Positions 1 through 53,401 of a DNA stretch of 64,000 nucleotides are shown here, one piece after another. Where the stretch lies: the NCBI GenBank assembly GCA_040753435.1, contig JBFMEN010000052.1:129-64128 (forward strand). The letters are read 5' to 3'. Below the pieces are notes generated by a model. The model was not told where the DNA came from. It saw nothing but the letters and a program-made list of their open reading frames with translations, and did not search any database. The DNA comes from Candidatus Omnitrophota bacterium (lineage in GTDB: Bacteria; Omnitrophota; Gorgyraeia; Zapsychrales; JANLHA01). How positions within the stretch are numbered: the stretch's first letter is position 1; every line of letters starts with the position of its first letter. The translations under genes were made by a program, and so were the position numbers.

Positions 1-3000
1 GCAGCGACAGCAGATCAGGCAATGATCGTCAACGCCCAGGCAGCGCAGGCGATCAAGGTAATGAAACCAACGGTCGTCGAAGCAACGATTGTTGAAGTTG
101 AGCCGACGATAAATAGAACAGCATTAAACGAAGATTTAAGGAAAGTTGAAGCGAATCCTTCGTTAATTGATGGTGCTGATGTTGAGACCCGACTTCCGGT
201 GTTAAGCCAGGCGTTGAAGAACCCGGCGGTAAATGAGGCCGTGATCGAAATAGCCCGGACGGTGGTGGCGGACGTGTTAACGGAGACATCGGAAGACGCA
301 GGCATGAGCGCCGCGCGCTTGAGGACCGTTTCTGATATGGCCGACCGGATCAAGAAAGGACAGCCTGTTCAGAATGTTTGGCGCGGCCGTGCCGTCGAAA
401 CGAAAATGGATGTTGCCCGGCAAACGTTGATCGAAGAGACAGCGGGAGACCAAGGTCTTTATGTTATTCCCGGTAAGGCCTTCTCAATGAAAAACATCGA
501 GACCTGGGTGCGCAATAATCCTGATACCGGAGTTTATATCGCCAATCTCAGTGAAGATCAGCCTTATGTCGAAAAAGTTACGGTGAATACGTCGAGCGGA
601 AATATTGAGCATCAACAGGTGGAAAAAATCAGTTCCGGGATAGTTCTCGTTTTAAGCGGTGCATTGAGTCCGCACAATATGGCCGCCCGAAGTCTTCACA
701 AAATGTACGACGGGTACGGCAAGGTGGTTTTCGATTCCAATTTCTCTATCGGAGATCGACAAACGGTTACGATGCAAGCCAGGCGGTCGCTTGTTATGGT
801 CAAGCCCGGGGATTCTATAGCTGTTCGCCAACTGGCGGTTGTTACAGGGTTAAGTGTTTCCGATATTAAAAAAGAGTTCAAGAAGTTCCAGGAAGATTAC
901 CAGAAAGCAAGGGAAGCCAAAGGCGTCTTGATGGCTGATGAATTGGAGGCGATTATTCCGGACGGATTGGCTGCGTCGATTAAAGATAATCAACAGGCCG
1001 CGGTAGTTTTAGCCGGAATGTCCGGCGTAGATCGGCGAGCATATCAAAAAATTTCATGGGTCGTTCCGGTCAAAGCAGAAAATGATGGATTGATTTTTAT
1101 TCGAAATGTTTATATCGAGACTGCGGCCCTCGACGGCAGCATGATTAAGGATGAAAGTCTCGGGGTTCTCGGGAAGGCGCTGGCCAGCTTAATTGAGCGC
1201 GGAGAAGATTTTGATGTTGTTCATCTCGTTGATCCAAGTACGGTTCAGACTAATGAAGCGATGATCAGAGAGACAGAAGATGGCATCAGGATTCTGGAAC
1301 TGGACCGCAATCTGTTTAATCGCGACGCACGGGGTCTTGTGAGTTATATTTCAGAAGAAATGAAACAGGGGGGTGGTTTCGTTTCGCAGAAAGTCGGCGA
1401 ATTGCTTTCAAGAATTTCGGTGACCCATGAAGAGGTGCATCAACCGGCTGCGGCTTTGATGAGAGACGGCGGAAAGGCTTTGGGTGTTTTGGAAACGCGT
1501 CCGATTTCCGCGGAAGATAACCTTAAACTGGTGAACGCCCAGGCTCAAAGAGCCGGGGAAGTTTTAGCGGGGACATCCGTTCCTCAGCCAGACCCATTCA
1601 TAAGGACAACACCTCCGGCTCTGCAATCACGAGCGGCTTCTGATCAATCTATGCTGCCGAAAATTTCAAAAGAAAACGCCGGGGATGCGGATGTCGTACA
1701 AACGGTAGTAGAAGGGCCTTCTTTCTCTGATGAGGCGATTCTGTCGGCATCAGAACAAAAAACGAAAATGCTTCAGGAGATTGTGACAGCGTTACCGGCA
1801 GAAGCGGCGAAAGAGACGATCGCTCGGACTAATCCGGAAGCTGATCAGCTGGCGATTGAGAGGGAATTGGAGGAGGTCGTTTCGTTAAGATTGCGGGGAG
1901 GACAAGAGTCGCCGGATGTCCCGGAACTGAACAAAGCGTTAAATGATGCGAAGATTCAGCAATCGGTCGCAATGCAATTCCGGAATCAAGTATCCGGAAC
2001 CGCCGAAGAATTGGCGGACAAGATTTCGGCGTCGTTGGAAAATATAGAAGAAGCTTTATCGGGAATCGAGAACGCGCCGGATCAGGAAACAGCGAAACAG
2101 GCGGCCGACAAACTCTGGACAAACGGCAATGCAATTGTGACATCTGTCCGTGGAGTGATGAGTAAATCAGGCGCGATCGGATGGCGGCTTGGTCAAACGT
2201 TGACTCGAGGAGGCGGAGGGATTCTTTCCAAATATGACGTGGCAGCGTCTGCCCAGGTTTTGGCGGGAGCTGGTATGTTTTTGGGTGTGGACCGGAATAA
2301 TGAAAAGAGCCGGACGGATGTCAGGAATGAGATCGCGCGATTGAAGAATACGGTTTCGTTATTAAGAAGCGCAAAGAATGAAGATATTCAGATGGGTTCT
2401 CATAATGGCATTCCGGTCATGTTGTTTGGAGAAGCGCCCTCTGCAAAAGAGATAAAAGTTGAGGTCACGGTTTCACGATCGGCTGACGTGAGTGTTCCTT
2501 CCGAAGAACAGATAAAAATACCTGATGACCAGGCGATACTGACGACGCACAGAGGGCTGCCAGACGGGGCAATGATCACTGGGCCGCAAACACGGGCGGT
2601 TCATGAGATCGTGAGAGCCTTCTTGCAGCCGAAGGCGGCGGAAGAAATAATTGTACGTGCCGGCGCCGGAATTAATCCCGAATCACTTAGAGACGATTTG
2701 GCGAGGGTTGCCTCGTCTGTAACAGTTTCCGGGGATGCAGAGACACCGGCGGCAGATCTTCCCGAATTGAATAAAGCCCTGGAGAGTGAAGATGTGCGGA
2801 AGGCCCTCGCCGTACAATTCAGGGATGACTCGGTCAGGATTGCTGAAGGAATTGCCGCGAACTCGATGAATTTGCTTGAAGAGATCGAGGCCGAATTTGA
2901 CGTGATTGAAAAAAGCGAAGATCTTGTGAGTGCGAAACAAGCTGCCGGGAAGATTTTGGGTTACAGCAAAGATTTAGCCTCGTCGGTTCAAAGTTTATCA

Positions 3001-9000: not shown

Positions 9001-12000
9001 CGAAAAGAAAGAAAAGCAGCCCAGGATAAATCTCTACCACAAGTACCGGTTGTGAACATAACCAGAAGGATATCCGAGTCGAAAGATAAGGATATGAAGT
9101 TCTGGAAGTTTGTACGTGAAGCAATCGGTCAAGCCACAAAAGCATCTCAAGAGATCCTCAGAAGGATACGCGGTGCTTGGTTTGCGTTTGTAATCGAGAA
9201 AATCAAGTACAGTATCTCTATTCGTGCGTCCAATTCAGTAGAAAATAACATTAACCATAATATTCAAAAGAGCCCGATTGAAGGCGTCTTTGGCATTGCT
9301 AAAGCTGTCTTTAATCGGGCTTCTTGGTTTGTTGCTTCTAAACAACAAGCCGAAAACAAAGGAGGCGCAAAATGGTTATCGTCAATACTCGAAGGGCTGA
9401 AGACATTGAATTCAAGTATTTCCTTGAAATTCCACGCAGCAATTGCACGTTCTGCTCTTGCAGAGACAGGGGTACAGGCCGAAGCAAGCTATACCTTATC
9501 TTTACCACAGGTAACTTCAGGGTTTATGAAAGAAACGGGCTCAAAGGAACCTGGGAACGTGTTACTGAAGATGAGCAAAGACGAATCCATGCTTTCTTCA
9601 CCCAGGCAGCCTGCAGCAGACAAGTCCCTCATTTCAGCAACAACCGTTTCCAGGAAATCCTTAACCTCAACTAACGGTGAAGATGAGGAAAAAACGTCTT
9701 CATCAGAGCAATCCGAAAAAGCTCAAGATTCAGCCTCTGTTTCCAGAAAAGTCTTAACAGGCATATTCCTTGCCGTTGTCGCATTATCAGGCGCATTAAT
9801 GGCTATAGGAATGGGTACGGCTGAATTCTGGGCGATTTTCGCGATTGCTCTGATCAGCGGCGGCTTTATAGCCAGTCGAATTTTCAATGATATTAAAAAA
9901 TTCGAAGCCGAAAAACGAAGGCCTTCTGATAAAGATAAACAGAAGGAATTAAAGTCTAAATATGGACCAGTGTTCCAGGCCGTTAAGATTGAGGCTGCTT
10001 TGTCAGAAGCCGTTGCCCGGTTACATGCGGCGGCTGCTTTGGTTGATAAAGAGGAAGCAATCAATCTGCGCAAGCAGGCAAAGCTGATCGAAGACGGGCA
10101 ATACGAATCAGTGATTGATGAGCACGCTTCTTCAGAGGAAATCGTCAGCCTTCTTTTGACCATAGCCCTAAGGAAGGCAGGATTAAGCAAAGTTGATCAG
10201 ATGGTCCGCGATCTTATGCGGATTCAGGTAGAAGTTTCTGATGTTTTAGGGAAATACAGCCAAACATCAGTTAGCGGACAGGTACGGGAATATGTTCAAC
10301 ATGAATTTGGGTATGCGGTATCCGATGATATGTTGAGCAAGGCCAGATCCAGAGCCCGGAAAGTTTATGAATTGTTCCAGGGCCGTCTGCAGAAAACAGA
10401 AAAGCTTCTTAAGATCCTTCAGACTTTGGAGCAGCAGAGACAGGGAATTGAAGACAGGCAGAAAGCGTTTAATGCAAAGCATCCGAAACCCGTTTCCCGC
10501 GAGCTTAAACAGATCAAAAAGGAATACCAGAAGAGAGCCGTTGCGATTAATCGCAAAATCAACGCTGTTTCTAAAGATATTGAGTATTTGCGGCTGAACA
10601 CCCTGTTCGGTTCTTATTTAAGAATAATAATTACGGAAGTTGTCCGTGAAGCCCGTTTGCAGGCATTACGCGATCATGGAGAACAAGCTAACAGGCTTTT
10701 CGCTGCCAGGACCAGACTTGAGAAGCTTGAGAAAAAGACAGCCGGAAAGACAGGAAAAGCCAGGGCCGCTGTAGATGCCGAGATCATTGTCCTGAAAAAC
10801 GAGATTCGTATTCTGCAAAACGCGATCGATTCATTTGATGCCGAAACAGAAACGATGGCCGGGAAGGCCAGGAAGGATATCGCTAATGAATTCGGTCCTG
10901 TTGAAATGCCCGCGTCGGTTGAAACTCCTGTTCAAATGCTGGCCAAAGCCGCGGGGACCAGGGCTGAGAGGACTTATCTGCGGGGATTATGGTCCGAAAT
11001 TTCCGGCGAGACGATTGTTCCTGAAGAAGAAATCGAGGATGCCGGGGCAAAAGACTTTTTAAGCTGGAAGTTCCTCGCCCGGGTGTTCTCATTCGGATTA
11101 TTATTGAGCCTGGCCGCGCTTGCTGTCTTCCCGTCGGATGCCCAGGGACAGGATAACGATTCAGACGCGGATGAAAACAAAGCCGCCGATCCCTCTATCA
11201 GCAAAGTTGCAAAATCGTCCGCTTACGCAATGGCAGTTTCCATGATGCAACCGGATACTTCCGCCGATGAAAAATCACATTCCCGTTACGGGGAACCGCA
11301 AAAGCGCGGAGCCGAATCAGCCGGGAATCCCGGGCTTCAGGCCGGCAGCGCAATCCATTCTTACCGGGTCGTTGACGCTGTTTACCTTGATTTCGAGAAG
11401 GACGGCAAGAGCCTGAATATCGTTCAATCGAACGGCGAAGCGATGCCGGATATGATGACAGCTTATTTAGGAGAAGGAAACGAGGCGGATCAATTAGTTA
11501 TCGTTACTTCTGATGGAACGAATTTTGCGATCAATATCGAAAATATCTTGAGCGCGCGGGAGAAAGGCGAATTGTTCGTCTCGGTCCGCGACTCTGCTTC
11601 GCAGATTGCCACTATGCCCGTGGCTGCGCTTGCCGACGTACTGTCCGCCCTGGACGGCAGGACCGGAGCCGAAGCCGGAATGGTCTTTATTATCAACAAA
11701 AATTTGAAACAGGACGGCACACCTTTTGAAAAGACCTTGTTGAATTTACTCAGAGCGGTTGCCGGGAAAGAAGACAAACCTTTGATGAAGACAAGGTTTA
11801 CTTACTTCCCCGGGTTCAACGTTTCCCGTTTTGATCACGGCCGTGATTTCTCGGGCGACGTCAAATGCAGGCGCTTTGATGTGTCCGGGATGCTGGCTGA
11901 AATGGCCGGGGATGAATACCGTGTTAAATCCGGAATCAGCGGAAAAGTTGTTAATGTCGAGCGGAAAAAAGACGGGGTTGAGGTAACGGTCGCGGGAGAT

Positions 12001-15000
12001 GGCGGCAACCATGTTTATCGTGGCTTGAAAACTGCTTATGTTCAAAAGGGCGACAAGGTTAAACCTGATCAGAAGATCGGGCGCAGCAGCAATAAGGAAT
12101 CCGTGAAGCCGGTTGTCCTTACCCTGGAACAGAAGGTGCAGAAGGCGGAAAAGACGATTCAGAAGTTAAAAGAAGGCGCCAGGAAAGAAGAGGCGCGGGT
12201 CGAATCGTTTAACAGGAATTTTGAAGAAACAAAAGAAGCCGTTCAAATGTCTATTGACACGAAGGGAAGGATTTATGAAGACAAGGACGTAAAAGAAAGC
12301 GCCGGTAACTATACTTTAGCCCTTATTGGAGAAGAAGAGCAGACGCAGGACAATCAATTAAAGAATATTGAGACGCTGGTAAAGAACATGAATCCGGAGC
12401 AAGATGAAGATGGCGGCCTGCGGATCACTTTGGGACTTGCGCCTCAAGGCCAGGGATTCAGCGGGTCCATTCCGGGATTACAAACCAGGGTCGGCGGCTT
12501 TGAGTTGGGCGCGTCCAGCAAAAACGCATTTACTTCGACGAATGATATTTTCAATACCCTTGTCAAGCCGGACGAATTATTTAACGGAAGCATCGAAAGC
12601 GTAGTGGCAGGATCATTGTATGCCATGCATGTCGGGACGGAGTTCTGGAATTCAGCGATGAGGGAGAAACATCACGGCGACAGGCAGCATGGAATGATCG
12701 TCATGCCGAAACGCGGAGGACAGTGGGTCGCCTTACCGGTAAGCAAGATTGATACGGAAATCGCTGAGCGGCGCATCGTTCTTAACGACCAGGGCGAATA
12801 TAAATTTGTCGGCGATGATGTTCCCAATGAAACCTATGTTCAATTGGAAGACAACTGGTTTGAATTATACAGCGATGCCATTCGAAAACTTTTCGGTCGG
12901 ATGCCGCTTATCGGAAAGATGTTCGGCGATTATGACGCAGACACGGTTATTGAGCGTTACAAAAAGAATATGAATTTTTATATTCCGGGCGATATCGAGA
13001 GACTGTTCTATCTGAAGGCCCTGATGCGCTCCAAGGACAGCAAGGAGATCTGGAGAGTGCAGCGCAAAGGCGAATACCTGCACGGATATGTGTTTAATCA
13101 GGATAATCCCAAAGAAGTGCGCGAGTATTTCCGTACGCGCATTTTTGCAAAAGAACTGAAAGACTGGAGAGAGACCACTCCTGAAGGCCAGGCGATGACC
13201 GGCAACATGAACGATGGAGATGTCTTTGATTATCCTTCTATCGAGCGCTTGATCGCAAACGGCGAAGACGCCCGAAAGGCATCAATATACGGCGGCATCT
13301 TTGATCCGGTAGCGAACAAATTTATCGCTGTTCTGAGCGGCGGCCGCGTTCTTCCGGTGACCCATAATGTTCAATTGACCCTGAGAACCGACGACATCAT
13401 TCGTCTCGGCAAGACCGCGGAAACGGCTGTTGTGCCGATCCGTGTCGGACATTATCTGGATGATAAAAATACTCCGGCCTACGGGATCTTCATCGCAGGT
13501 ACTCAGAACGCGCTGCTTGATTTCTGGCTGAAATATGGAATCCAGCCCGAACAGTACAACAATGTTGCCGGCGTTATGAATGTTTACACTGTCCGCCAGG
13601 GCGATAATCAGGATTATCTTGAGCACGTCGGATATGAGGAAAGGCAGGAAGCTCCGGCCGAAAACGATTTTGTGAAGGTTCAGTATCGCGAAGAAAAGAA
13701 TATGCGCGGCGAAACCGTCAAGCTGCCGTTAATGCTGCAATACCAGGCTAAACAATCCAGGATTTCTTCAATACCGGCAGAACGCCATATTCCTGAAGGC
13801 ATGAAGGTCGTCGTCCTTGAGCCGGTAAAGAAAGACGGCAAGACGATTGCGACAAAGGTCGGGTTCTGGATTCCGAAACCGGGCAGGATGCCGGTCAAGA
13901 GATTTATCACCGAGACCCAGGTTTTCTATCAATTCGCCGGCGAACCTATGCCCGGGGATATCAGCGGATTCCTTGACGCGGGCGAGATCGATAAAGTCGA
14001 GCGCTTCTGGAATTTCGGCAGCGACAAGGAAAAGGTCGATTTGAAGCCGGTTTTTGACCGCAACGATCCAGAAGATCCGAAAAAGAAATTTACCAGGCTG
14101 GCCGTCTATGTTAATCCCGCGACCGGCAAGAAAGAGATTGCGGTTGTGGACTTCGGCGAAAACGCTCCGAAACTGGCTCCTGAAGTTCAGGAAAAGAATT
14201 ACTTCACAAAGAGCTCCGGATATGGCAACAGCAAGCCCGTGGACGGCGTTCCTGTCCTCGTCTCCGTCGAAAAACCGGTGCCGAACCTGGGGCCTTCTTC
14301 AGATGTCATGACGAACATCGTTAATAATCCATATATCAATGATCTTGAAACTTTAAAAGCAAAAATCACGGCGATTAAAGACTGGCCGGCATCTTTGAAG
14401 AACAACCTCATCGCACAGATTGAAAAGGTTCAGGCTCAGTCGCGCGAGATTGAAGCCCACAAAGACGGCTTCAAGGTTTACGGCAAAATCTACCAGACCA
14501 TGATCAAAGAGTTGAACCGCGCTTACCTGCAGGAAGGCCAGTTGTGGACTGAACGCGCCAGGCAGTTATTTGAGATGTTCAAGGAAGACGCCCAGATTGA
14601 TGTGTTGATGAGCTCCGGTGAAATGCTCATTAATGTCCTGAGAAATATTGCCGCCAGCAAGAACATGAAGCCCGAAGATTATGTTGCCATGCTTGAGGCG
14701 ACAGGGAACCTTGAGCAGGCTGTTTATCATGCGATTGGAGAGCATTATCTAATGAATATGGTCCTCGGAGATGACGCGTTTGAGACCTCACATGCCCGGC
14801 TGAAAGCCATCGATGACTATATTGCCAGACTTAACCTGGTCGGGATTGAACGTAGCACCTTGTTTGATACGGAACTGAAATTCGGAGAAAACGGCCGGAT
14901 CCAGAGCCTTGAACAGATCCTTGAATACAATGAGAGAAAGATTGATGAATTTGAAGCGATGAAGACGAACTTGCAGGACATGCTGGCAGCCCGGGACTAT

Positions 15001-36000: not shown

Positions 36001-39000
36001 GAGATAAACATCAGGGTCGGAATGAAAAAGAACATTCTGACCGTAGAGTTCTCGGATAACCGCAAGAAGGTTTCTTATATTGATCCGAAATGCATGTTTT
36101 TGCAGAGATCCATGGGGCGCGGGCGAGGGACGGGCTTTGGTATTTTTGCCCTTCGACGGATCGTTGAGGGCGTGCTCGGAACCATGAGCATCGAAAACAG
36201 GGGCGTGACGACCAAGTTTATCGTCAGTCTTCCGGTAAGCGCGCAGCCGGCCGTTCTCGGGCTGCCGTTGTCGAAACAGTCGGGCACTTACATGTTAAGC
36301 GGCGAAGATGCCCCGGTCAAGAAGGCGCTGGCCCGATACCTGTCCGGAGCGCTCGGTTTAAGGTATATCAACGCACGCTTCCTTGAAGAGGCGGTCATTT
36401 ATGTTCTGATCGAAGAATTGCTTTTGCCGGAAATAAAGAAGGCCGGAATCAGCATGGATAATGAAAACGCGATTGATGCGTTTATTACAGAGAAAATCAA
36501 CGAGATCGAAGATTTTGTCTCCGCTTATTTGAGAGAAGACGGTGTCGACTATAGCAGGGAACCGTTAAGGATCAAAATTCATGGAGAATACCGAAATAGT
36601 GAGGGGTTGTATCTGTCCGGAGTGTTGAAAGACGTCATTAAGGAATCTTACCGGCAGGATTCCGGAAGGAAAGTCATATTTGAAAGGGTCGTTCGAATGC
36701 CGTTCTTTAAGACATTGCTGGAAACATTTATGGTTGACGGGGGCGGGAAGATCCTTGAAAACGGAGGATTTAACGGGATCATTCTGCTCAACGGTGCGGT
36801 CATCGGAAACGGAGATCTTTTGGCCAAAAAAGAAAGCGGGGCGATCCGGTTACGCGTTGACGGTGAAAAGAAGAAAGGAACAGTCTCAAGGAAATTGACG
36901 GTCTGGGACGGGAATGAAACCGGAGTCTTTGCAGAAATTGATTTGAACGCGAAGAACAGAGAAAAGATCGCGGAGGCTGTTATTCATGCCCGGCAAAAAA
37001 TGGACGGGGCCATGCTGACGGGATTGCAGGAGAAGAGAGATGCGCAACCGGACAAGTCGACGGCGGCAATTTCTTCCGGTATTTCCGGTTCGCTTAAAGA
37101 TCAGGTGATTTTGGCTAATGGCGACAGGGCCATGATTGCCGAAGGTAACGATCCGGTATTTTCGCAGATTTTGACACCTTTTGAAAAAGAGAATGATGTC
37201 ATCGTTCCAAATGTTAAAACAGGACCTGCAATCAAGCTGATTTATCAAGTGGATCATATGACTATTTCCGGGATCGTAGGGTTGTCCGAAACCAGAGAGA
37301 CTACCGGAGATTTCTTGCTCATGTCCGGGACCACGGCGGTGCGTGAAACCAGGAAGCTTGCCAGAGATTCCTTCATGCCTTTTAATCGCAAGCTGGATCT
37401 CTGGACATATGCCCCTATCGGTCTCAACCCCGTTGGCAGATACAGGAACCGGGGCATCAGTGAGACATTTTTAGCCTGGCTGTCGTTGTTGGCGTTGAGA
37501 CAAGGCTTTGATGAAATTTCCTGCCGCACCAGAGGGGTTCATAACGCCTACGTCTTCCGGAAATTCTTTGCAGATAAAGTTGTCTTTCCGTCGGGTAAAA
37601 TAATTGACATGAAGTTTTTCCCCTATGCCCTGACCAAGGCTGATAACTCCCTGCTATGGAATAAAGATGCGTTTGAGTTTTTCGGTCGACCCAGGATACC
37701 TGCGAATGTTCATATGGCATGGGCTGATTACGCGATGATTGGTTCACAAAGAACAAATTTACCGTCGACCGATTTCCGAAAGTTCCTTCTTTCCCCCGCC
37801 ATCGAGACGCCTGTGCCGGATCAGGCTACGGTGAAAAACTTATCAGACAGCGAGCCGCGATCGGAATCCTCTTCCCGGGATAATGCTGTTCTTGGCGATG
37901 CAGAAGATGATACTGAGCCGAAATATTCTTTTGGCATCACAACCAGAGGCCCGGGAGTGAGACTGGCGGTCCCGGGCGCGCCTTATAACAGGACGGAAAA
38001 ACTTGCGGATTCGGCGATGGTTACGGAAAACACGAAGCCTTTTGTAAATGATTATGTTAATGAGGAAGGGATCCGCGACGATATTGATCGGGTTATATCT
38101 GCCCTGGACGGCCTTCTGCTCAGGGATTTCTGTTCGGACTGCATGAGGAAAAAGATGCTCGCCCTGCTTGATTATCGTGGTCCCGGGGCGAATCTCGTGC
38201 GTAAGGCCGTACGGCAGGCCGTGTATTCAGCAGCCGCGTCTCTGCAAAACGGGAAACAAACAAAGGCGTCGAAAATACTCGGGATTTCAGGCGAGATATC
38301 AGGTCTTTATGAGGTCGTTATCAAGCGCGGGACGACACTGGAAGGGATTTATTTAGGGGAACTCTCGGATGTGAACGGAATCATCCGGGTGGGCGGCGTG
38401 GCGGTCAAAGAATTCGACGCGATCAGCAATAATACGGTCTTTGAATTTAAGTTCCACCTGACCCTCAGAAAACTGTACCAGCAGGTTTTCGGAATCGATT
38501 CCGCCGGCGCGTCTCATTTAAAGATTATCCGCAAGGCCGGACGGTTCCATAACATCAGAAACATTGTTTATTTCGGCGAAGTGGACTACGGGTTTGTGTC
38601 CAGGGCGATCCATGCGTTCCTGGTGAACAGGCGTCATCTCTTGCCGCGCGTTAACATTGTGAACAAGGGGTTGTCGGTAAAGTTTTCGTTAAACGAAATT
38701 AATGACTTTTTAACGAGCGAAGACGTCCTGAAACTGGTTAATGAAGAATCACGGGCCCAGGGAGCCCGCCATTATCTCGGCGACGTGATCCGGGAAAGAA
38801 AGAATATTATTACAAGGGGGATTCGAAGATTTCAGAAGGAGTTGCCGGCGTCAGCGAAGTTCGATGTAATCATCGCGATGAGTAATGCGCCGAAAGATGT
38901 TTTGAAAGATATTTCGAAACTGAAGCAAAAAACGAAGAGGCGCGATCATGCCATGTTAGTCAGGGCGACCGGCGGCGATGGATTCATGAAAACTTTTGCG

Positions 39001-41643: not shown

Positions 41644-41649
41644 TTTTGA

Positions 41650-41890
41650 TGATTGGTCCGGGGGGGGGGTATGTTTATGGTGGTGAAAAAATTTAATGTA
41701 GAGACGTCTTGGCGGGATGTCTCCAGGCAAGAGGGTAATGGCGTCGTCGATGCAGAGATGACCCGGCGGGTCATCTCAAACGGCAATGAGTCGGTTCTTC
41801 CGACGGAGACGTCTCATCGGGACGGGGCACAGGAGATTGCTGGAAGGGAGACGTTGGGCAGGAGGAGTCTGAAACGGAACTTCAGTTGAT
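41650..41890. repeat. Palindrome-rich intergenic repeat element, copy 1, containing a G10 homopolymer at 41660-41669
   Basis: gatgattggtccgggg...gagacgtct/agacgtctc inverted repeats...atgacccggcgggtcatctcaaacggcaatgagtcggttcttccgacggagacgtctcatcgggacggggcac.ggagattgctggaagggagacg. The same string (about 90% identical) recurs at 55812-56050. Confidence 0.85.
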
Positions 41891-41976
41891 GGGTTATGGC
41901 GTATAGCCAGGAAGAAGATCTTGATGGTGTTACTGAGTGGATTAGAAAAAAACAATATTAAAGACTGGAGGAAAAA

Positions 41977-42039
41977 ATGATTAAGAAGCCGAATTTGAAA
42001 GGGCATGGCAAGGTTGAATCTTTATTAACATTATTTTAA
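41977..42039 (+). CDS. Small ORF (20 aa, MIKKPNLKGHGKVESLLTLF) with a strong RBS in the AT-rich leader of the paralog operon. It may be a leader peptide or spurious
   Basis: ggagg sits 8 nt upstream of ATG at 41977. The ORF lies in the 600-nt intergenic/promoter region before 42238. Confidence 0.2.
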   Translation: MIKKPNLKGHGKVESLLTLF

Positions 42040-42237
42040 CTAAATTTGTTATAAACATATGATTTTATTATATTTATATATTTTATTAAATTTGCCAATT
42101 TGTTCTATATCTTTTATACTTATATCAGAGAAAAAAAGAAATCTCCCGCTCTATTTCTTTCAATTCAAATCTGATTTTTATATATTTTGCGACTTGGGAA
42201 AGTTTATTTCTTACTATAAGAAGACGAGGAGAAACTA

Positions 42238-45200
42238 ATGAGACACCCTAAAAAGGCAAACACCTATAATTTTTTCCAACGGTTAGTTTCTGGTTTTTTA
42301 GTTTTTGTATTTAGCTTGGGAGTAACATTTCCTCCCGATATCGCTCGAGCTCAAATATTACCGGACCTTTTGTCGCCAGGAATGATGGTCTCTCAAAGCT
42401 CCGGTTATGCCCCTGTTTTAATCAAAGGCATTACCGTCCATCCTGAGAATCCGTTAGCGTTTGATTTTATTATAGATACAGGCGATTCTGGCATTGAACT
42501 TAAAAGTCAGAGGTTCAGGCAGGAATCCTTGCGTCTGGTGAAATACTTTTTGGCGTCGTTAACTGTTCCGGCTAATGAGCTTTGGGTTAACTTGTCTCCT
42601 TATGAAGAAGATCGAGTGATTCCCCAGTCTTTCGGACTGACAGAAATGGGCATCGATTTGCTGGCGCAAGATTATATGTTGAAGCAGTTGACAGCGAGTC
42701 TGACGTATCCGGAAGATGAACTCGGAAAGAAATTCTGGAAAAGGGTTTATGAGCGCGCTTATAAAGAGTTAGGAACAACTTCCGTACCTTTCGACAATTT
42801 TCATAAAGTTTGGATTGTGCCTCAGGAAGCACTGGTCTATCAGAAAGACAATCAAGCATTTGTTGTTCGTAACAAATTAAAAGTGATGATGGAGGAGGAT
42901 TATTACGCGTTTCGACGGGCGCATGGTTATGGGTATGATATAGAGAAAAAATCAGCAGAATCTGACAACAGGTTGACCAGACTTCAAGCTAAAGTGATGA
43001 GGGAAATCATCCTTCCTGAAATCGAGAAAGAGGTTAATGAGGGAAAGAACTTCGCTCAACTTCGTCAGATTTTTCAAAGCATGATTTTAGCCACCTGGTT
43101 TAAGAAGAATCTTAAGGAAAGTCTTCTCGGACAGGTATATGCGGATCAGAAAAAAGTTAAGGGTGTGGATGTTGACGATCCGCAAGTTAAAGAAGAAATC
43201 TACCGGCAGTATGTGAAGGCTTTTGAACACGGTGTTTATAACTATATTAAAGAAGATTATGATCCGAATTTTCAAAAGATTGTTCCTCGTCACTATTTTT
43301 CTGGAGGGGCTTATGGTGGGAACATGCCTGCTGTACAGCAAACAGTTTATGCCGGAACAAGGCAGGACACCGCAGCATTACGTAATGAAGTTGCTGATGT
43401 TATAGAGGGTGATGGCAAGATTGGTGATGCTTCTATTGTTTTAGCGGAAACAAAGAACGAGGCTGCCTCCATAGAGGAAAAGGCAAAGAAGTTTGCAGGC
43501 CAGGGTGATGCGGCGATGCTTTCGGAGTATAAACCGGTGGTCGTTGCCTTTGGCGGTCCTGACGGCGTATTGTTTGAGTATGACCGATGGCACAAGACAT
43601 CTTTCGAAGATGCGGTCACTTTTAACAAGTTTTTGCAACTGCTTAATAAAGGGGTTGATGTTGTTATTATCAGCGATCAACGTTATTTTGATTGGATGAA
43701 AATTCCCGATGAGGTTTTGGAGTACAAGTTGGTTGAATTAGTCAATAAAAAGAAACCTGAATTAGGCAAAGCTTTAAGCGCCCAAGGGTGGAACTTTAGT
43801 GATTCCCAAGCGTCGGAAGTGATCACAATAATAAACAACAACGAAAAAGATTTTTTGAATAGCTTGAAAGATTGGGGGGATCAGTCTAAAAAAATCCTTG
43901 AAATGGATCTGCGTCCTAACTTTGTTGAGTTGGTTCGAAAGAAGAATCCTGATCTGTTAACGAATCTTGTGGGGGAGAAAGGACTGAAAGCTCGACTTGT
44001 TGAGCCCCTGCGAAAAGCGGCACCAGGCGCATTACAAAATTTAACGGTATATGCGTCAGCAGGAACTTTTAAAATAACTTTTGATGAAAACGGTGAGGAA
44101 ATAGAGGATCGTTCTTATAATATCCGCAACTCTATGGATTCCCGAAGCGCCGAAAAGATAAAACAAGCTATTGAAGCTATTGTGAAGGAAGTGTATTGGA
44201 GCGATTATCAGAAGCGGCCTCATGATTACCGTGAGGCTTATCCTGCTTATACCTTTGAAGGGTATGAACCCCAGGTTGTCCTGCACAAGAATGGTGATTA
44301 TGTTCAGGGGTTGACTGTCTTGTATTTACCTTCAGCTTTACTTGGAGCTCATAATCCATCAGAAAATAAGGGCATAGGAGATATTAGGAAAAAAGTTTTT
44401 GAAGTTATTAAGGAGAGGCTTTCTAAAGAGATTCATCCGTATATATGGGCCCATGGGCAATATACTCAAAATATGCGCGGGATGGTTTCCATTGATCTCC
44501 GACGCAGGAACACCGGGAAGGATTTTGCTCTTCGGGAGTACATGATGGAAAAAGGGGTTCTACCATCACAGATAATATCCTTCTGGAGTTTGGATGAGTA
44601 TTCGGGTGATCAGCCAATGAGCTATGTTGAAGAGATTACTCGATTTATCAATTCAAAAAGACAGGGGGATGAATTTTTTAAATCGCTGGGGATAGGGTTA
44701 GGCGGTATTTACTACTGGCTTCATTTTCTTTTACAGAAACATCTTGGAAGTGTTAGCGAGATAGTGACCGCTTATAATGAAGAAACAGCCCGGCACCCAT
44801 CGTTAGTAGGAGCTAAAAAATATATTGAAGAGAGCAAAAATGGACAAAAGTTCCCAAGAGAAACAGAAGATGCCATAGAGAATCTTTATGAGATTTATCG
44901 AAGTTTTGCGTTGACATTTTCTGAGGCGCCTGCGCCCTGGACGGCTATTTATACAGAAGCCTTCGAATTATCTGATAAAGTGAAAGACGCATTGAATGAA
45001 TTTAGTGATGTGTTTTATAAAGTTGAGAGTGTTGAAAGTTTGTTCAAAGAGGCGGATATAATTTTTTACAAGAGGGATGTTGATTTTAAGACGTTTTACC
45101 AAGGGGTTGATCCTCGAGCCGCGCGAAACATTAATACCTTGCTAAAGGCCTATAACGGCGACGAAGAAAGACTTAAGAATGATGTGATAGCGGCTGCAAA

Positions 45201-47196
45201 TTCGATGAATATTAGTATAGCTAGGGTCTTGAGCGGCTACTATCAGGATCGGTACGTTTTTCGGTACAAAACTCCATTATTTGAAACGCTTAAATCAAGA
45301 GCGCCTCCGGTGGATTCGAAAGTTGTTTATTTAGGTGGTGGCGGTGTGGCCACGACAACTCTTCTTCAAAAATTTATGGAAAAAAAATTCAAAGAACTCG
45401 CCTGTATTATTTCTTCTTCTGATGATGGTGGATCTTCCAAAGACATTATGATGAGTTTGTTTAAGAGATTCGGATTTTATTTTATTCCCCCAGGGGATGA
45501 CGCAGGATTGAACATCTTTTTATCGAATGATAATTTTAAAATTTTTACACTATTCTGGTTGGAATCACAAGGAAAAGATCTTCCGGACGAGGTCTTAATT
45601 AGTGCCCAAAAGAAAGACCTCGGGAAATTTCGTATAACTGCGGATTCCATCTATCCGGCATGGAGAGAAAGAGTTTTAAAGGAACTGGAAGCATTGCGCG
45701 ATCCAGCGAAGAAACAAGAGATTGAGAAAGCACTGGCAAAGTCTTTGGGACTTGGTGAAATTAATATTGATTATAAGAGTCAACGCCACCTGGTATTTTT
45801 GACAAGTCTGCTGTCTTTGGGCGATCTTGTAGATCGAGACTTGGTTACCCCCGGGATTGTTGGTTTGAATAATGCCTCGACAGCGAATCTGCTGATGATA
45901 GGTGATGCATACGATTCCAGGGTTATTCGTGAAGGAATGCCGGTTGATAAAGATTCCAGACAGTTTCTTCTTCATCAAATGTTAGAGCTAGGAGATGCTC
46001 AGCCTGTTCCTGTAAGTTATGATTATGAGCGTAGCGCGTTGATTGCTTTTGATAAAGGCGGAGAGGTTCTTGAAACAACTCAGACCAGGATTACTGATAA
46101 GGCGCATAATAAGCTTACCCATGATCTTTATTTTTCTCATCGGACAGCAGAAGAGCGAATGAAGCGGTTTGATTCTTCAGATGATCAATCTTATCCCAAA
46201 GCAGCTCAAAAGGCTGTTGAGATTATCCAAAATTCAGAAATGCTGGTTTCAGGGAATGGATCATTGTGGACATCTTTGATGCCGGTTTTGATGTATAAGG
46301 ATGTGGCGCAGGCAGTACTTGATAAACGCGCAGAAGGAGCGCCTGTAGTGTTTATTGCGAAGATCAAGAGTGATTTGGAGACGGCCGCCATCAAAATGAA
46401 CGATTCAGGGGAAGCAGAGGTTTTGGAGCGAGATGGAAAATTAGTTCTTAATTTAGAGCAGATGAATCTTGTTGAGCAGCTGAAGGCCGTAGTTCGTCAT
46501 ATAAGACGTTCGGTCGGCAGGGATGATATTGAGCTTAAAGATGTTTTTTCCCATGCCATTATTGCGAATCTAAGCAAGGAGGCGATTCGGATTTTGAAAG
46601 AGAAAGAGAGTTTGACAGAAAAAGAGATTGGTGCCTTAAGAGAAGGTGGTGCCCAGGTAAGCAAGCTCCTGAAAGGGATTCAGCCTGTAGTTACTCAGGA
46701 AGAAAAAGAATATGTAATGAATCAGGGGTTGAAGATTATAGAAATCAGCGATAAGGATATCACTGGGATTGAAAAAGGGAAACCCTTGTATGATAACGAT
46801 AATTTATACGAGGTGTTAAAGAGTATTAAGCCTGAGGTCTTTGCTGATTCTGCCATGTTGACAAAAGAATCGTTACAGGTGACACCGGTAAAGGCCGGAG
46901 ATCAAAAAGCAGTAAAAACAGGGGGAGAGCAAGTCGGCGGTATTGATCTTAATCCGGACTATCTAGATCTTAGGATTAAGCGCGATGGAAATGGCGTGCC
47001 GCTTCCCATGTCTCAGCAATCTATTGAGCAACTGCGCCAGATCGATGGATTTCTGCCTGTGATTATTAATGTGACTCCGATCCAGAATTTTCCGATGGCG
47101 CTGGGTCTTGATGTGAGTTCTGAAAATGAGGATGGGACGACCAATAATCGTTTAAGCCATCTGGATGTCTTTGATAAGATGGCAAGGTTGAATTGA
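42238..47196 (+). CDS. Secreted modular paralog 1 (1652 aa): signal peptide, shared N-terminal domain, CofD/YvcK-like (UPF0052) core, shared C-terminal module
   Basis: RBS aggag is followed by ATG 42238. The N-terminal hydrophobic signal is LVSGFLVFVFSLGVTFPPDIARAQ. About 360 aa are homologous to the N-termini of the next two genes. VVYLGGGGVATTTLLQKF...LACIISSSDDGGSSKDIM...FIPPGDDAGLNIFLS (about 45320-45530) matches the YvcK/CofD GGGTG, DDGGSSG and PPGD motifs. The C-terminal module is GGIDLNPDYL...LPVIINVTPIQNFP. Confidence 0.9.
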   Translation: MRHPKKANTYNFFQRLVSGFLVFVFSLGVTFPPDIARAQILPDLLSPGMMVSQSSGYAPVLIKGITVHPENPLAFDFIIDTGDSGIELKSQRFRQESLRLVKYFLASLTVPANELWVNLSPYEEDRVIPQSFGLTEMGIDLLAQDYMLKQLTASLTYPEDELGKKFWKRVYERAYKELGTTSVPFDNFHKVWIVPQEALVYQKDNQAFVVRNKLKVMMEEDYYAFRRAHGYGYDIEKKSAESDNRLTRLQAKVMREIILPEIEKEVNEGKNFAQLRQIFQSMILATWFKKNLKESLLGQVYADQKKVKGVDVDDPQVKEEIYRQYVKAFEHGVYNYIKEDYDPNFQKIVPRHYFSGGAYGGNMPAVQQTVYAGTRQDTAALRNEVADVIEGDGKIGDASIVLAETKNEAASIEEKAKKFAGQGDAAMLSEYKPVVVAFGGPDGVLFEYDRWHKTSFEDAVTFNKFLQLLNKGVDVVIISDQRYFDWMKIPDEVLEYKLVELVNKKKPELGKALSAQGWNFSDSQASEVITIINNNEKDFLNSLKDWGDQSKKILEMDLRPNFVELVRKKNPDLLTNLVGEKGLKARLVEPLRKAAPGALQNLTVYASAGTFKITFDENGEEIEDRSYNIRNSMDSRSAEKIKQAIEAIVKEVYWSDYQKRPHDYREAYPAYTFEGYEPQVVLHKNGDYVQGLTVLYLPSALLGAHNPSENKGIGDIRKKVFEVIKERLSKEIHPYIWAHGQYTQNMRGMVSIDLRRRNTGKDFALREYMMEKGVLPSQIISFWSLDEYSGDQPMSYVEEITRFINSKRQGDEFFKSLGIGLGGIYYWLHFLLQKHLGSVSEIVTAYNEETARHPSLVGAKKYIEESKNGQKFPRETEDAIENLYEIYRSFALTFSEAPAPWTAIYTEAFELSDKVKDALNEFSDVFYKVESVESLFKEADIIFYKRDVDFKTFYQGVDPRAARNINTLLKAYNGDEERLKNDVIAAANSMNISIARVLSGYYQDRYVFRYKTPLFETLKSRAPPVDSKVVYLGGGGVATTTLLQKFMEKKFKELACIISSSDDGGSSKDIMMSLFKRFGFYFIPPGDDAGLNIFLSNDNFKIFTLFWLESQGKDLPDEVLISAQKKDLGKFRITADSIYPAWRERVLKELEALRDPAKKQEIEKALAKSLGLGEINIDYKSQRHLVFLTSLLSLGDLVDRDLVTPGIVGLNNASTANLLMIGDAYDSRVIREGMPVDKDSRQFLLHQMLELGDAQPVPVSYDYERSALIAFDKGGEVLETTQTRITDKAHNKLTHDLYFSHRTAEERMKRFDSSDDQSYPKAAQKAVEIIQNSEMLVSGNGSLWTSLMPVLMYKDVAQAVLDKRAEGAPVVFIAKIKSDLETAAIKMNDSGEAEVLERDGKLVLNLEQMNLVEQLKAVVRHIRRSVGRDDIELKDVFSHAIIANLSKEAIRILKEKESLTEKEIGALREGGAQVSKLLKGIQPVVTQEEKEYVMNQGLKIIEISDKDITGIEKGKPLYDNDNLYEVLKSIKPEVFADSAMLTKESLQVTPVKAGDQKAVKTGGEQVGGIDLNPDYLDLRIKRDGNGVPLPMSQQSIEQLRQIDGFLPVIINVTPIQNFPMALGLDVSSENEDGTTNNRLSHLDVFDKMARLN

Positions 47197-47286
47197 TTCA
47201 ATCTTTACTGGTATAGGGTAAAAAAGCGTTTTTAATTTAAATGATTCATTAAGAACACCAAAAACATTTTAGGGAGAATCTGTCTT

Positions 47287-49881
47287 ATGACATACAGAAG
47301 AACGAGAGCCTATAGGTTATTGTCAATGTGTTTAAGTTTGATCTTGGCGTTGTCCTTTTCGGTTCCGGTTCAGGCTCAAGGCACATTTTTAACCGGGCTC
47401 AATTTACCTGCTATCGGGACAAAAGTTGTTCCAAGTGCGGCTTATCATCCGCCACTTATGGCCGGAATGACAATTTATCCCGAAGATCCCTTGAAATTTG
47501 ACTTCATCGTCACAACGGGAGATGACAATCTGGAAGGAGAGGCGTTTAAGAAGGAGGCGCAGCGGTTGATTAACTATTTTCTGGCCACATTGACTGTCCC
47601 CGACGATGAAATGTGGGTTAATCTTTCTCCGTATGAAAAAGACCGCATTATTGCAGATGGTTTGGGGACGACGGAGATGGGTCGTGACATGCTCGTTCAA
47701 GACTATATATTGAAACAGCTGACTGCGTCATTAATGTATCCTGAAGAGGAATTAGGAGAAAAATTTTGGAAAAGGGTCTATGAAAAAACAAAGTCAAGAT
47801 TTGGCGCTACGGAAATTTCTGCGAACACCTTCAACAAAGTTTGGATTGTTCCGGAGGAAGCTGTTGTTTATGTGAATGGGGCGAATGTTTTTGTCAATAA
47901 AAGCCATCTTAAAGTAATGCTGGAGGAGGACTATTTGGCTCTGGAAAGCAATCAAGAGAGCACACGCCATGGCTTGGGACAGATGACAAAGGACGATATT
48001 GAGGCTATAAGTCAGGACGCCAAGGAAATCCTTAAGGAAATAATTCTTCCTGAAATAGAACGGGAGGTTAATGAGGGTAAAAATTTTGCAAACCTCCGCC
48101 AGATTTATTATTCAATGATATTGGCGACATGGTACAAGAAGAATTTAAAAAAGAGCATTCTGGGCAAGGTATACATTGATAAGAACAAGATTGACGGTAT
48201 CGATCTTGACGATAAAGACGTTAAAGAAAAAATCTATGATAGATATATCCAGGCGTTCAAGCAAGGTGTTTACAATTATATTAAAGAAGACTTTGATGAA
48301 AGGACACAGGAAGTGGTTCCAAGAAGATATTTTTCCGGCGGCCTCAGGGGACAAAAAGATGTTGTTGCGGGTAAAGATTTATCATCAACCGCTGAAATCT
48401 CCCGTGCGCAAAGAGGAGAAATTGGTGCCAGGAAAGTGGCGTTTAACGCAGAGTTAAAAAATCATGACGCAGCTATGTTAACCGATACAGTCATTCCCGC
48501 GGAGATGAAAGATGCCATGGTACGGGAGGGCGGCAAGGCCATACGAAATTTCCTTGGAGGGCTTGTTCCCTATGTTGGTAATCGTGAGAGTTCTCCTTTT
48601 GCTGATATCGCTAAAGTTGAGCCTTTATGGGAGGCGGCGCAAAAGTTTGAAGCCAATCCAGACAATTTTACGGATGAAAAGTTGATTCAAGAGAAGACGG
48701 GAATCCCCCGCATTGAATTGAGGGATTTGAACCCTGAAACAGGGGAAGTCGCGCAGGTCGCGATTATAGGTATTCCTGGGAATTACCGATCGGTTCCTCT
48801 GGAAGGCTTTCAATCAATCGATCAGGCAGATTCGTTGTCAATCAGAATGGGCGGTTTTATGACGCTTGAAGCGAATGTAGGAGGTGTCAATAAATCGTTA
48901 CCTTTAAACTATCTTGCCCAGCATTTCAATGAAATTCTTGACATGTTGGGATATACCCCGGGAACATATATTGATGCGCGTGCCACGCGAACAGTTATTG
49001 CAACGGACGGCGACGGGACATTATATGGCAAGCCAACGGCAACAGAAAATCCGATTTTAAATGATAGCGCTGCTTATGATAATTTAATGGAATATTTAAG
49101 GGTTGGCGGGTTTTATGTCTTAACATCAGGGAATGACATTCAATTGACAAGAGAAAGACTCCTGGCCGGCAGGGGGATACCTGTTGAAGTGCGAAACAGG
49201 TTTCTTATCGTTGGAAATGGCGGTGCGAATATGGGTTATTTAAATGCGAATGGCGATCTCGTCGAGATAGATCAATATAAACGTCAGTCATTGTTAGAAA
49301 ACAGTGCGGATGAAATTACGGATTTGGATGTCGTTTATGTGGGAGATGATGAAAAGCTGGCTGGTAATGATATGCCCGGGTTTAGAAAAGTCGGCCTGAG
49401 CCAGGCAATCAGCGTCTCCTCAAAAGATTTCCAGAATAATCCTGTGGAACTGCGCAAAAATTATATTGGTAATATGGAGCAAGGGACGAGTGCTTTATTT
49501 GGCGCAATTATTGCCCGGGTTAAACAGTCACCGTTTACGCCTCTTTTTGAGGAAAAGACGCTTCAATCAATTATCTTAAAAGCCCGGGAATCTTTTTCGA
49601 ACACGATTTACGACTCGGCTATGTTAGGGGAAGGATCATTGGCTGACCGTTCTGCCAAGAACGGCGGTATTGATTTTAATTCCAATAATATGAGACTTGA
49701 TGAAGTAGGGGATGAAATTGATTTTCAACTTGATGAAACAAGTTTAAAAAATATCGATGTGAATACCATTGAAGGGATCATTCCTATGATCATCAACATT
49801 ACGCCGATCGTTGATTTTTTCCCTCTTTTGAGTCGTGCAGAGGGGATAGTGGATGACCCGCAGTTGTCTGCGCGGAATTAA
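47287..49881 (+). CDS. Secreted modular paralog 2 (864 aa): signal peptide, shared N-terminal domain, HAD-superfamily phosphatase-like core, shared C-terminal module
   Basis: Signal peptide LLSMCLSLILALSFSVPVQAQG. The N-terminal domain is colinear with paralogs 1 and 3. HAD motif I is VIATDGDGTLYG (about 49005), motif II is YVLTSGN and motif IV is VVYVGDDEKLAGNDMPGF (about 49341). The C-terminal module is GGIDFNSNNMRLD...IIPMIINITPIVDFFP. Confidence 0.9.
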   Translation: MTYRRTRAYRLLSMCLSLILALSFSVPVQAQGTFLTGLNLPAIGTKVVPSAAYHPPLMAGMTIYPEDPLKFDFIVTTGDDNLEGEAFKKEAQRLINYFLATLTVPDDEMWVNLSPYEKDRIIADGLGTTEMGRDMLVQDYILKQLTASLMYPEEELGEKFWKRVYEKTKSRFGATEISANTFNKVWIVPEEAVVYVNGANVFVNKSHLKVMLEEDYLALESNQESTRHGLGQMTKDDIEAISQDAKEILKEIILPEIEREVNEGKNFANLRQIYYSMILATWYKKNLKKSILGKVYIDKNKIDGIDLDDKDVKEKIYDRYIQAFKQGVYNYIKEDFDERTQEVVPRRYFSGGLRGQKDVVAGKDLSSTAEISRAQRGEIGARKVAFNAELKNHDAAMLTDTVIPAEMKDAMVREGGKAIRNFLGGLVPYVGNRESSPFADIAKVEPLWEAAQKFEANPDNFTDEKLIQEKTGIPRIELRDLNPETGEVAQVAIIGIPGNYRSVPLEGFQSIDQADSLSIRMGGFMTLEANVGGVNKSLPLNYLAQHFNEILDMLGYTPGTYIDARATRTVIATDGDGTLYGKPTATENPILNDSAAYDNLMEYLRVGGFYVLTSGNDIQLTRERLLAGRGIPVEVRNRFLIVGNGGANMGYLNANGDLVEIDQYKRQSLLENSADEITDLDVVYVGDDEKLAGNDMPGFRKVGLSQAISVSSKDFQNNPVELRKNYIGNMEQGTSALFGAIIARVKQSPFTPLFEEKTLQSIILKARESFSNTIYDSAMLGEGSLADRSAKNGGIDFNSNNMRLDEVGDEIDFQLDETSLKNIDVNTIEGIIPMIINITPIVDFFPLLSRAEGIVDDPQLSARN

Positions 49882-49886
49882 ACACT

Positions 49887-53036: not shown

Positions 53037-53401
53037 AAAATAGCTGATGTTTTTGGAACTCTTCAGGAACAAATATATAATTTCTATATTTCTATGTCAT
53101 CTTTCCAATGAAAACTTCCTGAGTTCAAACGGCAATTCCCAAAAATATAAAATTTGACTTAATTTGAAGGTGGATAGGCCGGCTCCCTTGGGGGTTTGAG
53201 TCCTACAAATATAAATCTCCTTGCCTAAATTCATGAATTTTTCTATGATATACGAACATTTTTTATAAATTTTTATTATGGCCATCTCGCAGCTTCCGTC
53301 TTGGCGGATTATCTTGTAGACGGAGCAGACGGCTGCTAGCAAACAAAAGGCCTTTTGGGATTGTGAGTTTTGAGTTAACGACCGGCTAAAAAGGAGCTGA
53401 A

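Follow-up and report, generated by a model that had tools for sequence, protein, structure and literature searches.

Gene content of the window

We analysed a 64,000-nt stretch of Candidatus Omnitrophota DNA (assembly GCA_040753435.1, contig JBFMEN010000052.1, positions 129 to 64,128 of the forward strand; hereafter the window), in which a short D-x-A-M-L motif recurs along a giant open reading frame (ORF) and in two of three downstream paralogs, p1, p2 and p3. The giant ORF occupies nt 1..41643 of the + strand as one uninterrupted frame of at least 13,880 amino acids (aa), and its left end is open, the 5' end lying beyond the window. Its Pfam matches include SLT and GH2 in the central part, together with a weak M23 peptidase match below the Pfam cut-off, and SLOG/LOG and HATPase in the C-terminal part, together with a weak 2'-5' RNA ligase-like match that is also below the cut-off. 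Each enzyme domain was found once or twice, and none dominates.

The giant ORF carries 27 junction motifs, distributed over two flanks (all coordinates on the + strand). In the N-proximal motif-bearing part (13..9597), motifs of 15-18 nt each start at nt 13, 1132, 1642, 2563, 3517, 5071, 6568, 8641 and 9580. The motif-free central block (9751..28542, aa about 3251-9514) is flanked by predicted transmembrane (TM) helices and contains the M23, SLT and GH2 cell-wall hydrolase domains. The C-proximal motif-bearing part (28843..40650) has motif starts at nt 28843, 28900, 29080, 30355, 30412, 30646, 30808, 31204 and 33718, and further at nt 37003, 37123, 37726, 38008, 38944, 39364, 40000, 40072 and 40633. 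The positions assigned to several of these motifs in a sequence-only reading of this DNA (DQAMIV at 13, DSAMLS at 3517, DAAMLT at 5071, DRAMLT at 6568 and 33718, DGAMLT at 37003, DQAMLT at 40072) agree with ours to within 1-6 nt. A crude Kyte-Doolittle scan of the giant ORF gave 8-11 hydrophobic 19-mers.

The three paralogs follow on the same strand. In p1 (1652 aa, 42238..47196) a signal peptide and an N-terminal domain (N-domain, to nt 43308) are followed by cargo with a CofD-like domain and by a C-terminal module (C-module, 46930-47133); the cargo is preceded by DAAMLS at 43507 and followed by DSAMLT at 46846. The same order is seen in p2 (864 aa, 47287..49881), with a signal peptide, an N-domain to nt 48342 and a C-module at 49657-49872, the cargo lying between DAAMLT at 48466 and DSAMLG at 49612. 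These four motif positions, too, agree with the sequence-only reading to within a few nt. p3 (1049 aa, 49887..53036) has the N-domain (to nt 50954) and C-module (52836-53021) and is without a strict motif, the sequence before its C-module reading NRAMK, a degenerate form. The p2 protein is 100% identical to a hypothetical protein of a Candidatus Omnitrophota metagenome-assembled genome (MAG) at NCBI, placing the window in an Omnitrophota genome. Further downstream are chromosomal genes for an HMGL-like enzyme, a pseudopilin, KDPG aldolase, MutL and MutS.

Several other properties of the window were observed. The pseudopilin-type gene, which has an N-terminal methylation motif, lies at 54494-55048, 1.5 kb downstream of the paralogs. 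Cysteine is strongly depleted: the giant ORF has 20 Cys over its 13,880 aa, the first 3,250 aa being free of it, and every paralog has a single Cys. GC content is mosaic, at 0.39-0.43 in the paralog genes (window 42001-54000) and from 0.43 to 0.53 among 2-kb windows of the giant ORF. GC skew is positive throughout the window, even where MutS and MutL sit on the minus strand.

The D-x-A-M-L motif is enriched and is constrained at the protein level

We scanned the giant ORF and p1-p3 with the patterns D-x-[AS]-M-[LIV] and D-x-[AS]-M-[LIVM]. The first gave 29 instances and the second 31, comprising 27 in the giant ORF, 2 in p1 and 2 in p2. In 300 residue shuffles the [LIV] pattern was expected 0.76 ± 0.85 times, with a maximum of 4, and the narrower D.AML[TSG] was observed 13 times against 0.02 expected. 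Both the recurrence that the sequence-only reading had described in the giant ORF and two paralogs and the excess over shuffled sequence that it had made its check therefore hold. The remaining five reading frames of the same DNA contained 0, 0, 0, 1 and 1 motifs, and there were none in seven downstream housekeeping ORFs (2,944 aa). Position 2 of the motif is variable within the window (Q 8, A 6, S 5, G 3, R 3).

The median inter-motif spacing is 219 aa (interquartile range 116-436). The distribution in the giant ORF is not uniform, as aa 3199-9614 contain no motif where about 23 would be expected from the density outside (P = 8e-11). We found no other enriched motif inside this central block.

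Self-comparison showed that the giant ORF is largely non-repetitive, the exceptions being four C-terminal repeats and one duplicated TM unit; most motif instances are therefore independent. Spread of the motif through repeat duplication was accordingly rejected, since only these repeats and this unit have shared copies. The four tandem C-terminal repeats (window 38989-41352) are about 210 aa each and 36-66% identical. Three of the four hold the motif at a fixed internal position (VVRT.V.REEDQAML), and the fourth is degenerate (DQEIL). The earlier statement that EEDQAMLG occurs in every C-terminal repeat is thus correct for three repeats and fails for the fourth, which reads EEDQEILG (about nt 41104-41127). 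The duplicated unit, of about 190 aa with 61-87% identity between copies, lies at window 28384-28968 and 29908-30480 (aa 9462-9656 and 9970-10160); each copy has a predicted TM helix followed by a double motif, DPAMLA and DAAMIA in the first and DPSMMS and DSAMMA in the second. The first copy also holds the sole S-S-P-V of the giant ORF (28744..28755, aa 9582, + strand), 33 aa upstream of DPAMLA. A more divergent duplication (35% identity) is seen at window 1759-3231, where aa 587-799 resemble aa 863-1077 and a motif (aa 855) lies between the copies.

The codons of the motif vary freely. Across 28 instances Asp is encoded by GAT or GAC, Ala by all four GCN codons and Leu by CTN or TTR, and the nucleotides flanking the motif are unconserved both upstream and downstream. 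As synonymous positions vary freely and the motif is confined to the coding frame, it is the protein that is under selection. These data bear on a signal at the level of DNA or translation, such as a recombination hotspot or att-like scar, an internal ATG start, or 2A-like ribosomal skipping. Such a signal might be suspected from the shuffling of modules between proteins (see below) and from the Met in the motif, but every synonymous position varies, the flanking nucleotides are unconserved and ribosome-binding sequences show no enrichment, and we consider this explanation very improbable. The recombination hotspot that the sequence-only reading had offered was rejected as a DNA-level mechanism on the free codon variation and unconserved flanks. 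Internal translation start was rejected because Shine-Dalgarno-like 4-mers precede 17% of motif ATGs and 16% of other in-frame ATGs; in addition, products of internal starts would run on to the end of the ORF, and the alternative motif described below has no Met.

The paralogs belong to a phylum-wide carrier family

The paralogs share the layout of a protein family that consists of a Sec signal peptide, a ~320-aa N-domain ending in IPRKYFSGG, variable cargo and a ~70-aa C-module. p1, p2 and p3 each carry the N-terminal hallmark of this family, a ~320-aa domain with WVNLSPYE ... IPRKYFSGG; they are 49-59% identical over aa 1-400, and all have the invariant N-domain columns and Sec-type signal peptides. 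A hidden Markov model (HMM) of the C-module, GGID(F/L)NP...PVIINITPI, built from 102 homologues, matched p2, p1 and p3 with E = 6e-27, 5e-23 and 4e-21, respectively. The C-terminus of the giant ORF gave no match to this HMM (score -0.1), so that its by-eye likeness to a degenerate C-module ('KEGIDLKEP...IFPVMFIPVSTTPV') was rejected. The giant ORF shares the junction code of the family; its C-terminus does not place it in the family, and its N-terminus is outside the window. A homologue search with giant ORF aa 11190-12385 found none.

Of the 10,384 representatives of 50%-identity clusters that the family profile matches, 6,767 have E <= 1e-30. Source-named members and 79 genome loci come nearly all from Omnitrophota MAGs, some of them labelled Planctomycetales. 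This is a large carrier family, phylum-wide in Omnitrophota and previously undescribed, for which we found no published name. Its cargo varies among members and includes phosphatases, DnaJ, Macro, kinases, methyltransferases, glycosyltransferases and others, and there is clear shuffling of modules from one protein to another. Complete members are up to 5,312 aa long, and many in the genome loci exceed 3,700 aa, reaching the end of the locus DNA; the N-domain therefore also heads very long proteins.

The N-domain has invariant polar residues (S114, D134, D139, K143, K184 and E260, with H228 nearly invariant) and no match in Pfam, NCBIfam or PDB sequences. Its AlphaFold2 (AF2) model is confident (predicted local distance difference test, pLDDT, >90) and predicts a mostly helical fold with two long beta-hairpins, and a Foldseek search of this model against PDB and BFVD gave no significant match.

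Complete central-metabolism enzymes were observed behind a signal peptide and N-domain in relatives at four loci, L049 (9165-20276), L011 (9977-21067), L076 (1338-9872) and L019 (9917-21208). Among these apparently cytoplasmic enzymes are acyl-CoA dehydrogenase, pyruvate phosphate dikinase, phosphoglucomutase, class-I aldolase, TIM, malate synthase and isocitrate lyase. The layout of L049 resembles that of the window, with the tail of a very long family protein (3-9131; 16 D-x-A-M-L motifs in 3,043 aa) immediately followed by a second family gene (9165-20276) that has 10 D-x-A-M-L motifs.

Motifs lie in linkers and bracket whole enzymes

In p1 and p2 the first motif follows the YFSGG of the N-domain by 67 and 42 aa, and the second precedes the C-module by 28 and 15 aa, respectively, in agreement with the earlier placement of the motif just after the shared N-terminal domain and just before the C-terminal module. 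The same arrangement is found in the family at large. Among 120 homologues the motif was observed 89 times against 6.0 expected, and its positions cluster at two places, 1-77 aa beyond YFSGG and 57-105 aa short of the C-terminus, i.e., on either side of the cargo.

Structural models place the motifs outside folded cores. For p2, AF2 models the N-domain (40-330) and the C-module (790-850) with pLDDT values of 85-98, and the two motifs (394-398 and 776-780) lie within segments of pLDDT<50 (350-405 and 772-783). A model of giant ORF aa 10200-11399 has one confident core, the tandem LOG module (10561-11050), and the motifs at aa 10216, 10270, 10402 and 11240 are all outside it, the last in a long coil. 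This tandem LOG/SLOG module (31678..33018, aa 10560-11006, + strand) is the sole confidently folded core of its inter-motif interval, and it has a 46%-identical counterpart in homologue P0121 (aligned region 301-752) that is itself bracketed by DQAML at 282 and 766, at distances of 19 aa upstream and 14 aa downstream. Compared with random sites, the sequences flanking motifs in the giant ORF are also more disorder-prone (TOP-IDP, p = 7e-4).

The placement relative to enzymes is more striking in the long relatives. In L049, motifs at 446 and 1022 flank acyl-CoA dehydrogenase (Pfam span 485-855), those at 1022 and 2512 flank pyruvate phosphate dikinase (1064-2097), and those at 2949 and 3485 flank phosphoglucomutase I-IV (2966-3472); in L019, OGFr_N (2802-2966) is flanked by motifs at 2773 and 2997. 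L011 and L076 show the same bracketing for malate synthase, isocitrate lyase, class-I aldolase and TIM. Across seven proteins, 0 of 80 motifs fell inside Pfam enzyme spans, against 13.3 expected (P = 6e-8). As multi-domain enzymes stay unsplit, the motif marks joints at the level of proteins rather than domains. From these observations we conclude that the motif is a protein-level junction signal located in linkers between independently folding modules, which are often whole enzymes.

A second junction code is used genome by genome

Homologues that lack D-x-A-M-L (A type) often have S-S-P-[VIML] (B type) at the identical two junctions, with 69 instances observed against 3.4 expected. Junction pairs within one protein are matched in type (12 A/A, 16 B/B, 1 A/B and 0 B/A; Fisher p = 2.5e-7). 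The types also segregate by genome, with A:B counts of 33:1, 26:1, 18:0 and 7:0 in some genomes and 0:13, 0:10, 0:9, 0:9 and 0:8 in others, and an independent set of 73 representatives contained 23 A-only, 13 B-only and 1 mixed. When k-mer enrichment was computed per genome in an unbiased manner, the A and B motifs came out as top patterns, along with the dialects D.AVL, D.ALL and N.AML. Relative to 694 neighbouring ORFs, motif density in family proteins is 16-fold higher for A and about 4-fold higher for B. Thus, beyond what the sequence-only reading had described, the junction code is shared with a phylum-wide carrier family and an alternative motif exists. Two homologues of p2, P0024 and P0059, have both codes adjacent, as SSPISDNAML and SSPVSDNAML, with one residue between.

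The logos of the two motifs are [S/G/A]-D-x-A-M-L-[S/A/G/T] and [S/A/V/G]-S-S-P-[V/I]-[S/G/A], respectively, with no conservation outside. Over 310 instances, position 2 of the A motif is most often A (53), S (43), Q (33), R (28) or N (25). These logos allow us to evaluate whether the motif is a sequon for post-translational modification in linkers, e.g., for O-glycosylation. The Bacteroidetes O-glycosylation sequon is D-(S/T)-(A/I/L/V/M/T), lineage-specific sequons occur elsewhere, and our motif is similarly short, lineage-specific and located in linkers of exported proteins, the B type being Ser-rich. Yet position 2 of the A motif is not limited to S/T, on which ground the Bacteroidetes sequon itself was rejected, the invariant D, A, M and L carry no modifiable hydroxyls, and the strict placement of one motif per junction differs from glycosylated linkers. 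A modification sequon is therefore an explanation to which we give little credence.

The motif could also be passive structural punctuation without a reader, such as a helix cap or a linker-stiffening element. This would fit the fixed position of the motif in the C-terminal repeats, and a low-confidence AF2 model in which one motif precedes a helix and another lies at a helix end. It is at odds with the genome-wide exchange of two chemically unrelated motifs at the same junctions, with the unconserved flanks and with the low pLDDT of the segments concerned, and we regard a passive element as having only a slight chance of being correct.

The type of code does not follow descent of the N-domain. 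Paralogues from the same genome are dispersed across the N-domain tree, and the nearest N-domain neighbour from a different genome shares the motif type no more often than chance predicts (33 of 58 cases), while for typed paralogues of one genome the concordance is 39 of 43 pairs. As the type is independent of N-domain relatedness and uniform in a genome, the code is a property of the genome and not of the gene lineage. This pattern, which is the one expected from a shared trans-acting reader, points to such a factor.

The same data can be used to evaluate cis-autoprocessing, in which the conserved N-domain (or the C-module) would itself be a protease that cuts its own chain. The presence of the N-domain in all family members, its invariant polar residues and a fold without a solved match are what such a protease might show. 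Similarity in the N-domain, however, fails to predict motif type, no column of the N-domain or C-module cleanly separates A from B, and no peptidase family was matched in Pfam, NCBIfam or PDB sequences, making cis-autoprocessing improbable. The earlier proposal of a processing or autoproteolytic site is accordingly divided: processing is the part favoured by the linker positions, the bracketing of enzymes, the constraint at the protein level and the genome-wide replacement of the motif, and autoproteolysis is without support, there being apart from M23 no Pfam protease domain in the giant ORF or p1-p3 and no column that tracks motif type.

The junction motifs as candidate processing sites

We tentatively favour a model in which the junction motifs are the processing sites of a polyprotein-like exported protein; cleavage is what we infer from the placement and genome specificity described above. 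In this model a separately encoded protease would recognise [S/G/A]-D-x-A-M-L-[S/A/G/T], or S-S-P-[V/I] in other lineages, and the exported chain would be cut to an N-domain carrier, single cargo enzymes and a C-module. For the giant ORF, the two flanks would yield about 25 pieces of roughly 20-1,100 aa, and the motif-free block of about 6,400 aa, membrane-embedded and with its cell-wall hydrolases, would remain intact as one membrane machine. Processing would thereby explain the layout of the giant ORF, in which motif-rich flanks surround a motif-free, TM-bounded hydrolase block. It would also explain how enzymes such as aldolase, TIM and acyl-CoA dehydrogenase could function: their free-living forms are obligate oligomers, and such assembly is hard to square with tethering in one chain.

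Several observations weigh against processing. Apart from M23, Pfam detected no protease domain within the giant ORF or p1-p3, and no conserved protease neighbour was found in the 79 family loci, where the clusters found most widely as neighbours encode response regulators, histidine kinases, ABC ATPases and the like, none of them in more than 11 of 47 genomes. About half of the family members have no strict motif and only a degenerate D-x-A-x-x, and p3 has no strict motif at all. The TM topology, from a crude hydropathy scan, cannot place all motif-bearing stretches in one compartment. In the C-terminal repeats the motif has a conserved repeat context and is not obviously in a free linker, and the low pLDDT near three giant ORF motifs may only reflect a thin alignment. 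Finally, genome-level uniformity of the code could instead stem from organismal phylogeny.

The main rival to processing, likewise among the readings first offered from the sequence, is that the motif acts as a recognition tag that is not cleaved, with a genome-specific partner (a secretion or translocation component, a chaperone or a scaffold) binding each linker. Modules could in this way be passed singly through an export machine or organised on the surface. The evidence for a trans-acting, genome-specific reader and the placement in linkers fit a docking motif equally well, and the Sec signal peptides of p1-p3, the pseudopilin gene 1.5 kb downstream and the T2SS-like (type II secretion system) genes that the literature places near giant genes are consistent with it. 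On the other hand, a tag need not flank both sides of every enzyme, nor precede the C-module, oligomeric enzymes would stay tethered, and our analysis found no partner. We consider an uncleaved docking motif unlikely, and retain processing as our working model.

A broader proposal, about which we are more doubtful, is that Omnitrophota make a large proportion of their enzyme-like proteins as Sec-targeted chromosomal polyproteins of 0.6 to >14 thousand aa (kaa), perhaps >100 kaa, each headed by a conserved carrier domain and possibly cut by a co-evolving protease wherever a genome-specific code of five residues occurs. If true, such carrier-headed, cut chains would be a cellular counterpart of polyprotein expression in RNA viruses, and the rule would parse giant proteins into functional units and predict what an episymbiont or predator releases at or into its host.

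The junction code itself supplies candidate cut sites for the giant proteins of Omnitrophota, whose cleavage the literature leaves as a question; p2 (864 aa) is a tractable family member for examining such sites. It also provides a rule, read from the sequence, by which proteins beyond the size that can be modelled could be divided into units for structure prediction, and the mutually exclusive D-x-A-M-L and S-S-P-V codes allow a comparative-genomics screen for the factor that reads them.

Comparison with known systems

Giant or very long multi-enzyme proteins of Omnitrophota have already been described (West-Roberts et al. 2023, bioRxiv 10.1101/2023.11.21.568195; Nielsen & Lui 2026, bioRxiv 10.64898/2026.06.07.730766). 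One of these preprints reports that cleavage points were unknown, which blocked analysis, and raises the question of whether the proteins are cleaved; the published work also places T2SS-like genes near the giant genes. Term searches of the two preprints gave no junction motif, neither of the words 'motif' and 'cleavage' occurs in one of them, and section 8 of Nielsen & Lui has no N-domain/C-module carrier family, S-S-P-V code or junction motif. A literature search on the motif, or on bacterial polyprotein processing in Omnitrophota, returned nothing. The present locus is like these giants in its phylum, in an ORF of >10 kaa with TM helices, many unrelated enzyme domains and cell-wall hydrolases, and in a pseudopilin/T2SS-like gene nearby; unlike the published descriptions, as judged from the term searches and section 8, it has a described junction motif.

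Viral polyproteins share with our system a short, lineage-specific linear motif in linkers between complete proteins of one very long ORF. Their sites include Q|G for the picornavirus 3C protease and those of potyvirus NIa. Unlike them, the ORF analysed here is on a cellular chromosome, with MutS, MutL, KDPG aldolase and an HMGL-like gene flanking, the family proteins are directed to Sec export, and cleavage is so far a proposal. The only protease domain that Pfam detected in the chain is M23, a peptidoglycan peptidase, the family profile matched no PDB sequence, and Foldseek against BFVD gave no significant match.

MARTX toxins have conserved N- and C-terminal regions around swappable effectors, and a cysteine protease domain (CPD) cuts them after Leu before small residues. 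The carrier family similarly has a conserved head and tail and variable modular cargo, and M-L-[S/A/G/T] of the A type resembles a Leu|small-residue site. It differs from MARTX in that its cargo is mostly metabolic enzymes and a second motif is used elsewhere; we found no Peptidase_C80 match in Pfam (E <= 0.01), no GG.G.D nonapeptide cores or other RTX/glycine-rich repeats, no repeat Pfam matches and no type I secretion system neighbours.

Cyanobactin precursors, in which PatE cores are flanked by short conserved protease sites, resemble the family in having hypervariable cassettes that are each bracketed by short recognition sequences, theirs being read by separately encoded proteases. In our case, by contrast, the cassettes are whole folded enzymes of 100-1,500 aa rather than peptides of 6-8 residues, and the same motif stands on both sides.

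The polymorphic toxins CdiA and Rhs have demarcation motifs, VENN and PxxxxDPxGL, respectively, that occur once each, within a conserved domain. As in CdiA and Rhs, a short motif here divides a conserved delivery region from variable C-terminal cargo; unlike in these toxins, it occurs as many as 27 times, lacks conserved flanks and differs in type from genome to genome. We found no DP.GL and one chance VENN (aa 3080) with no supporting Pfam domain.

The hallmarks of those families (a protease encoded in the chain, the CPD of MARTX toxins, RTX repeats, viral surroundings) were looked for and not found, which places the system outside them. We conclude that the motif works like a polyprotein junction code yet belongs to none of the families with which we compared it.

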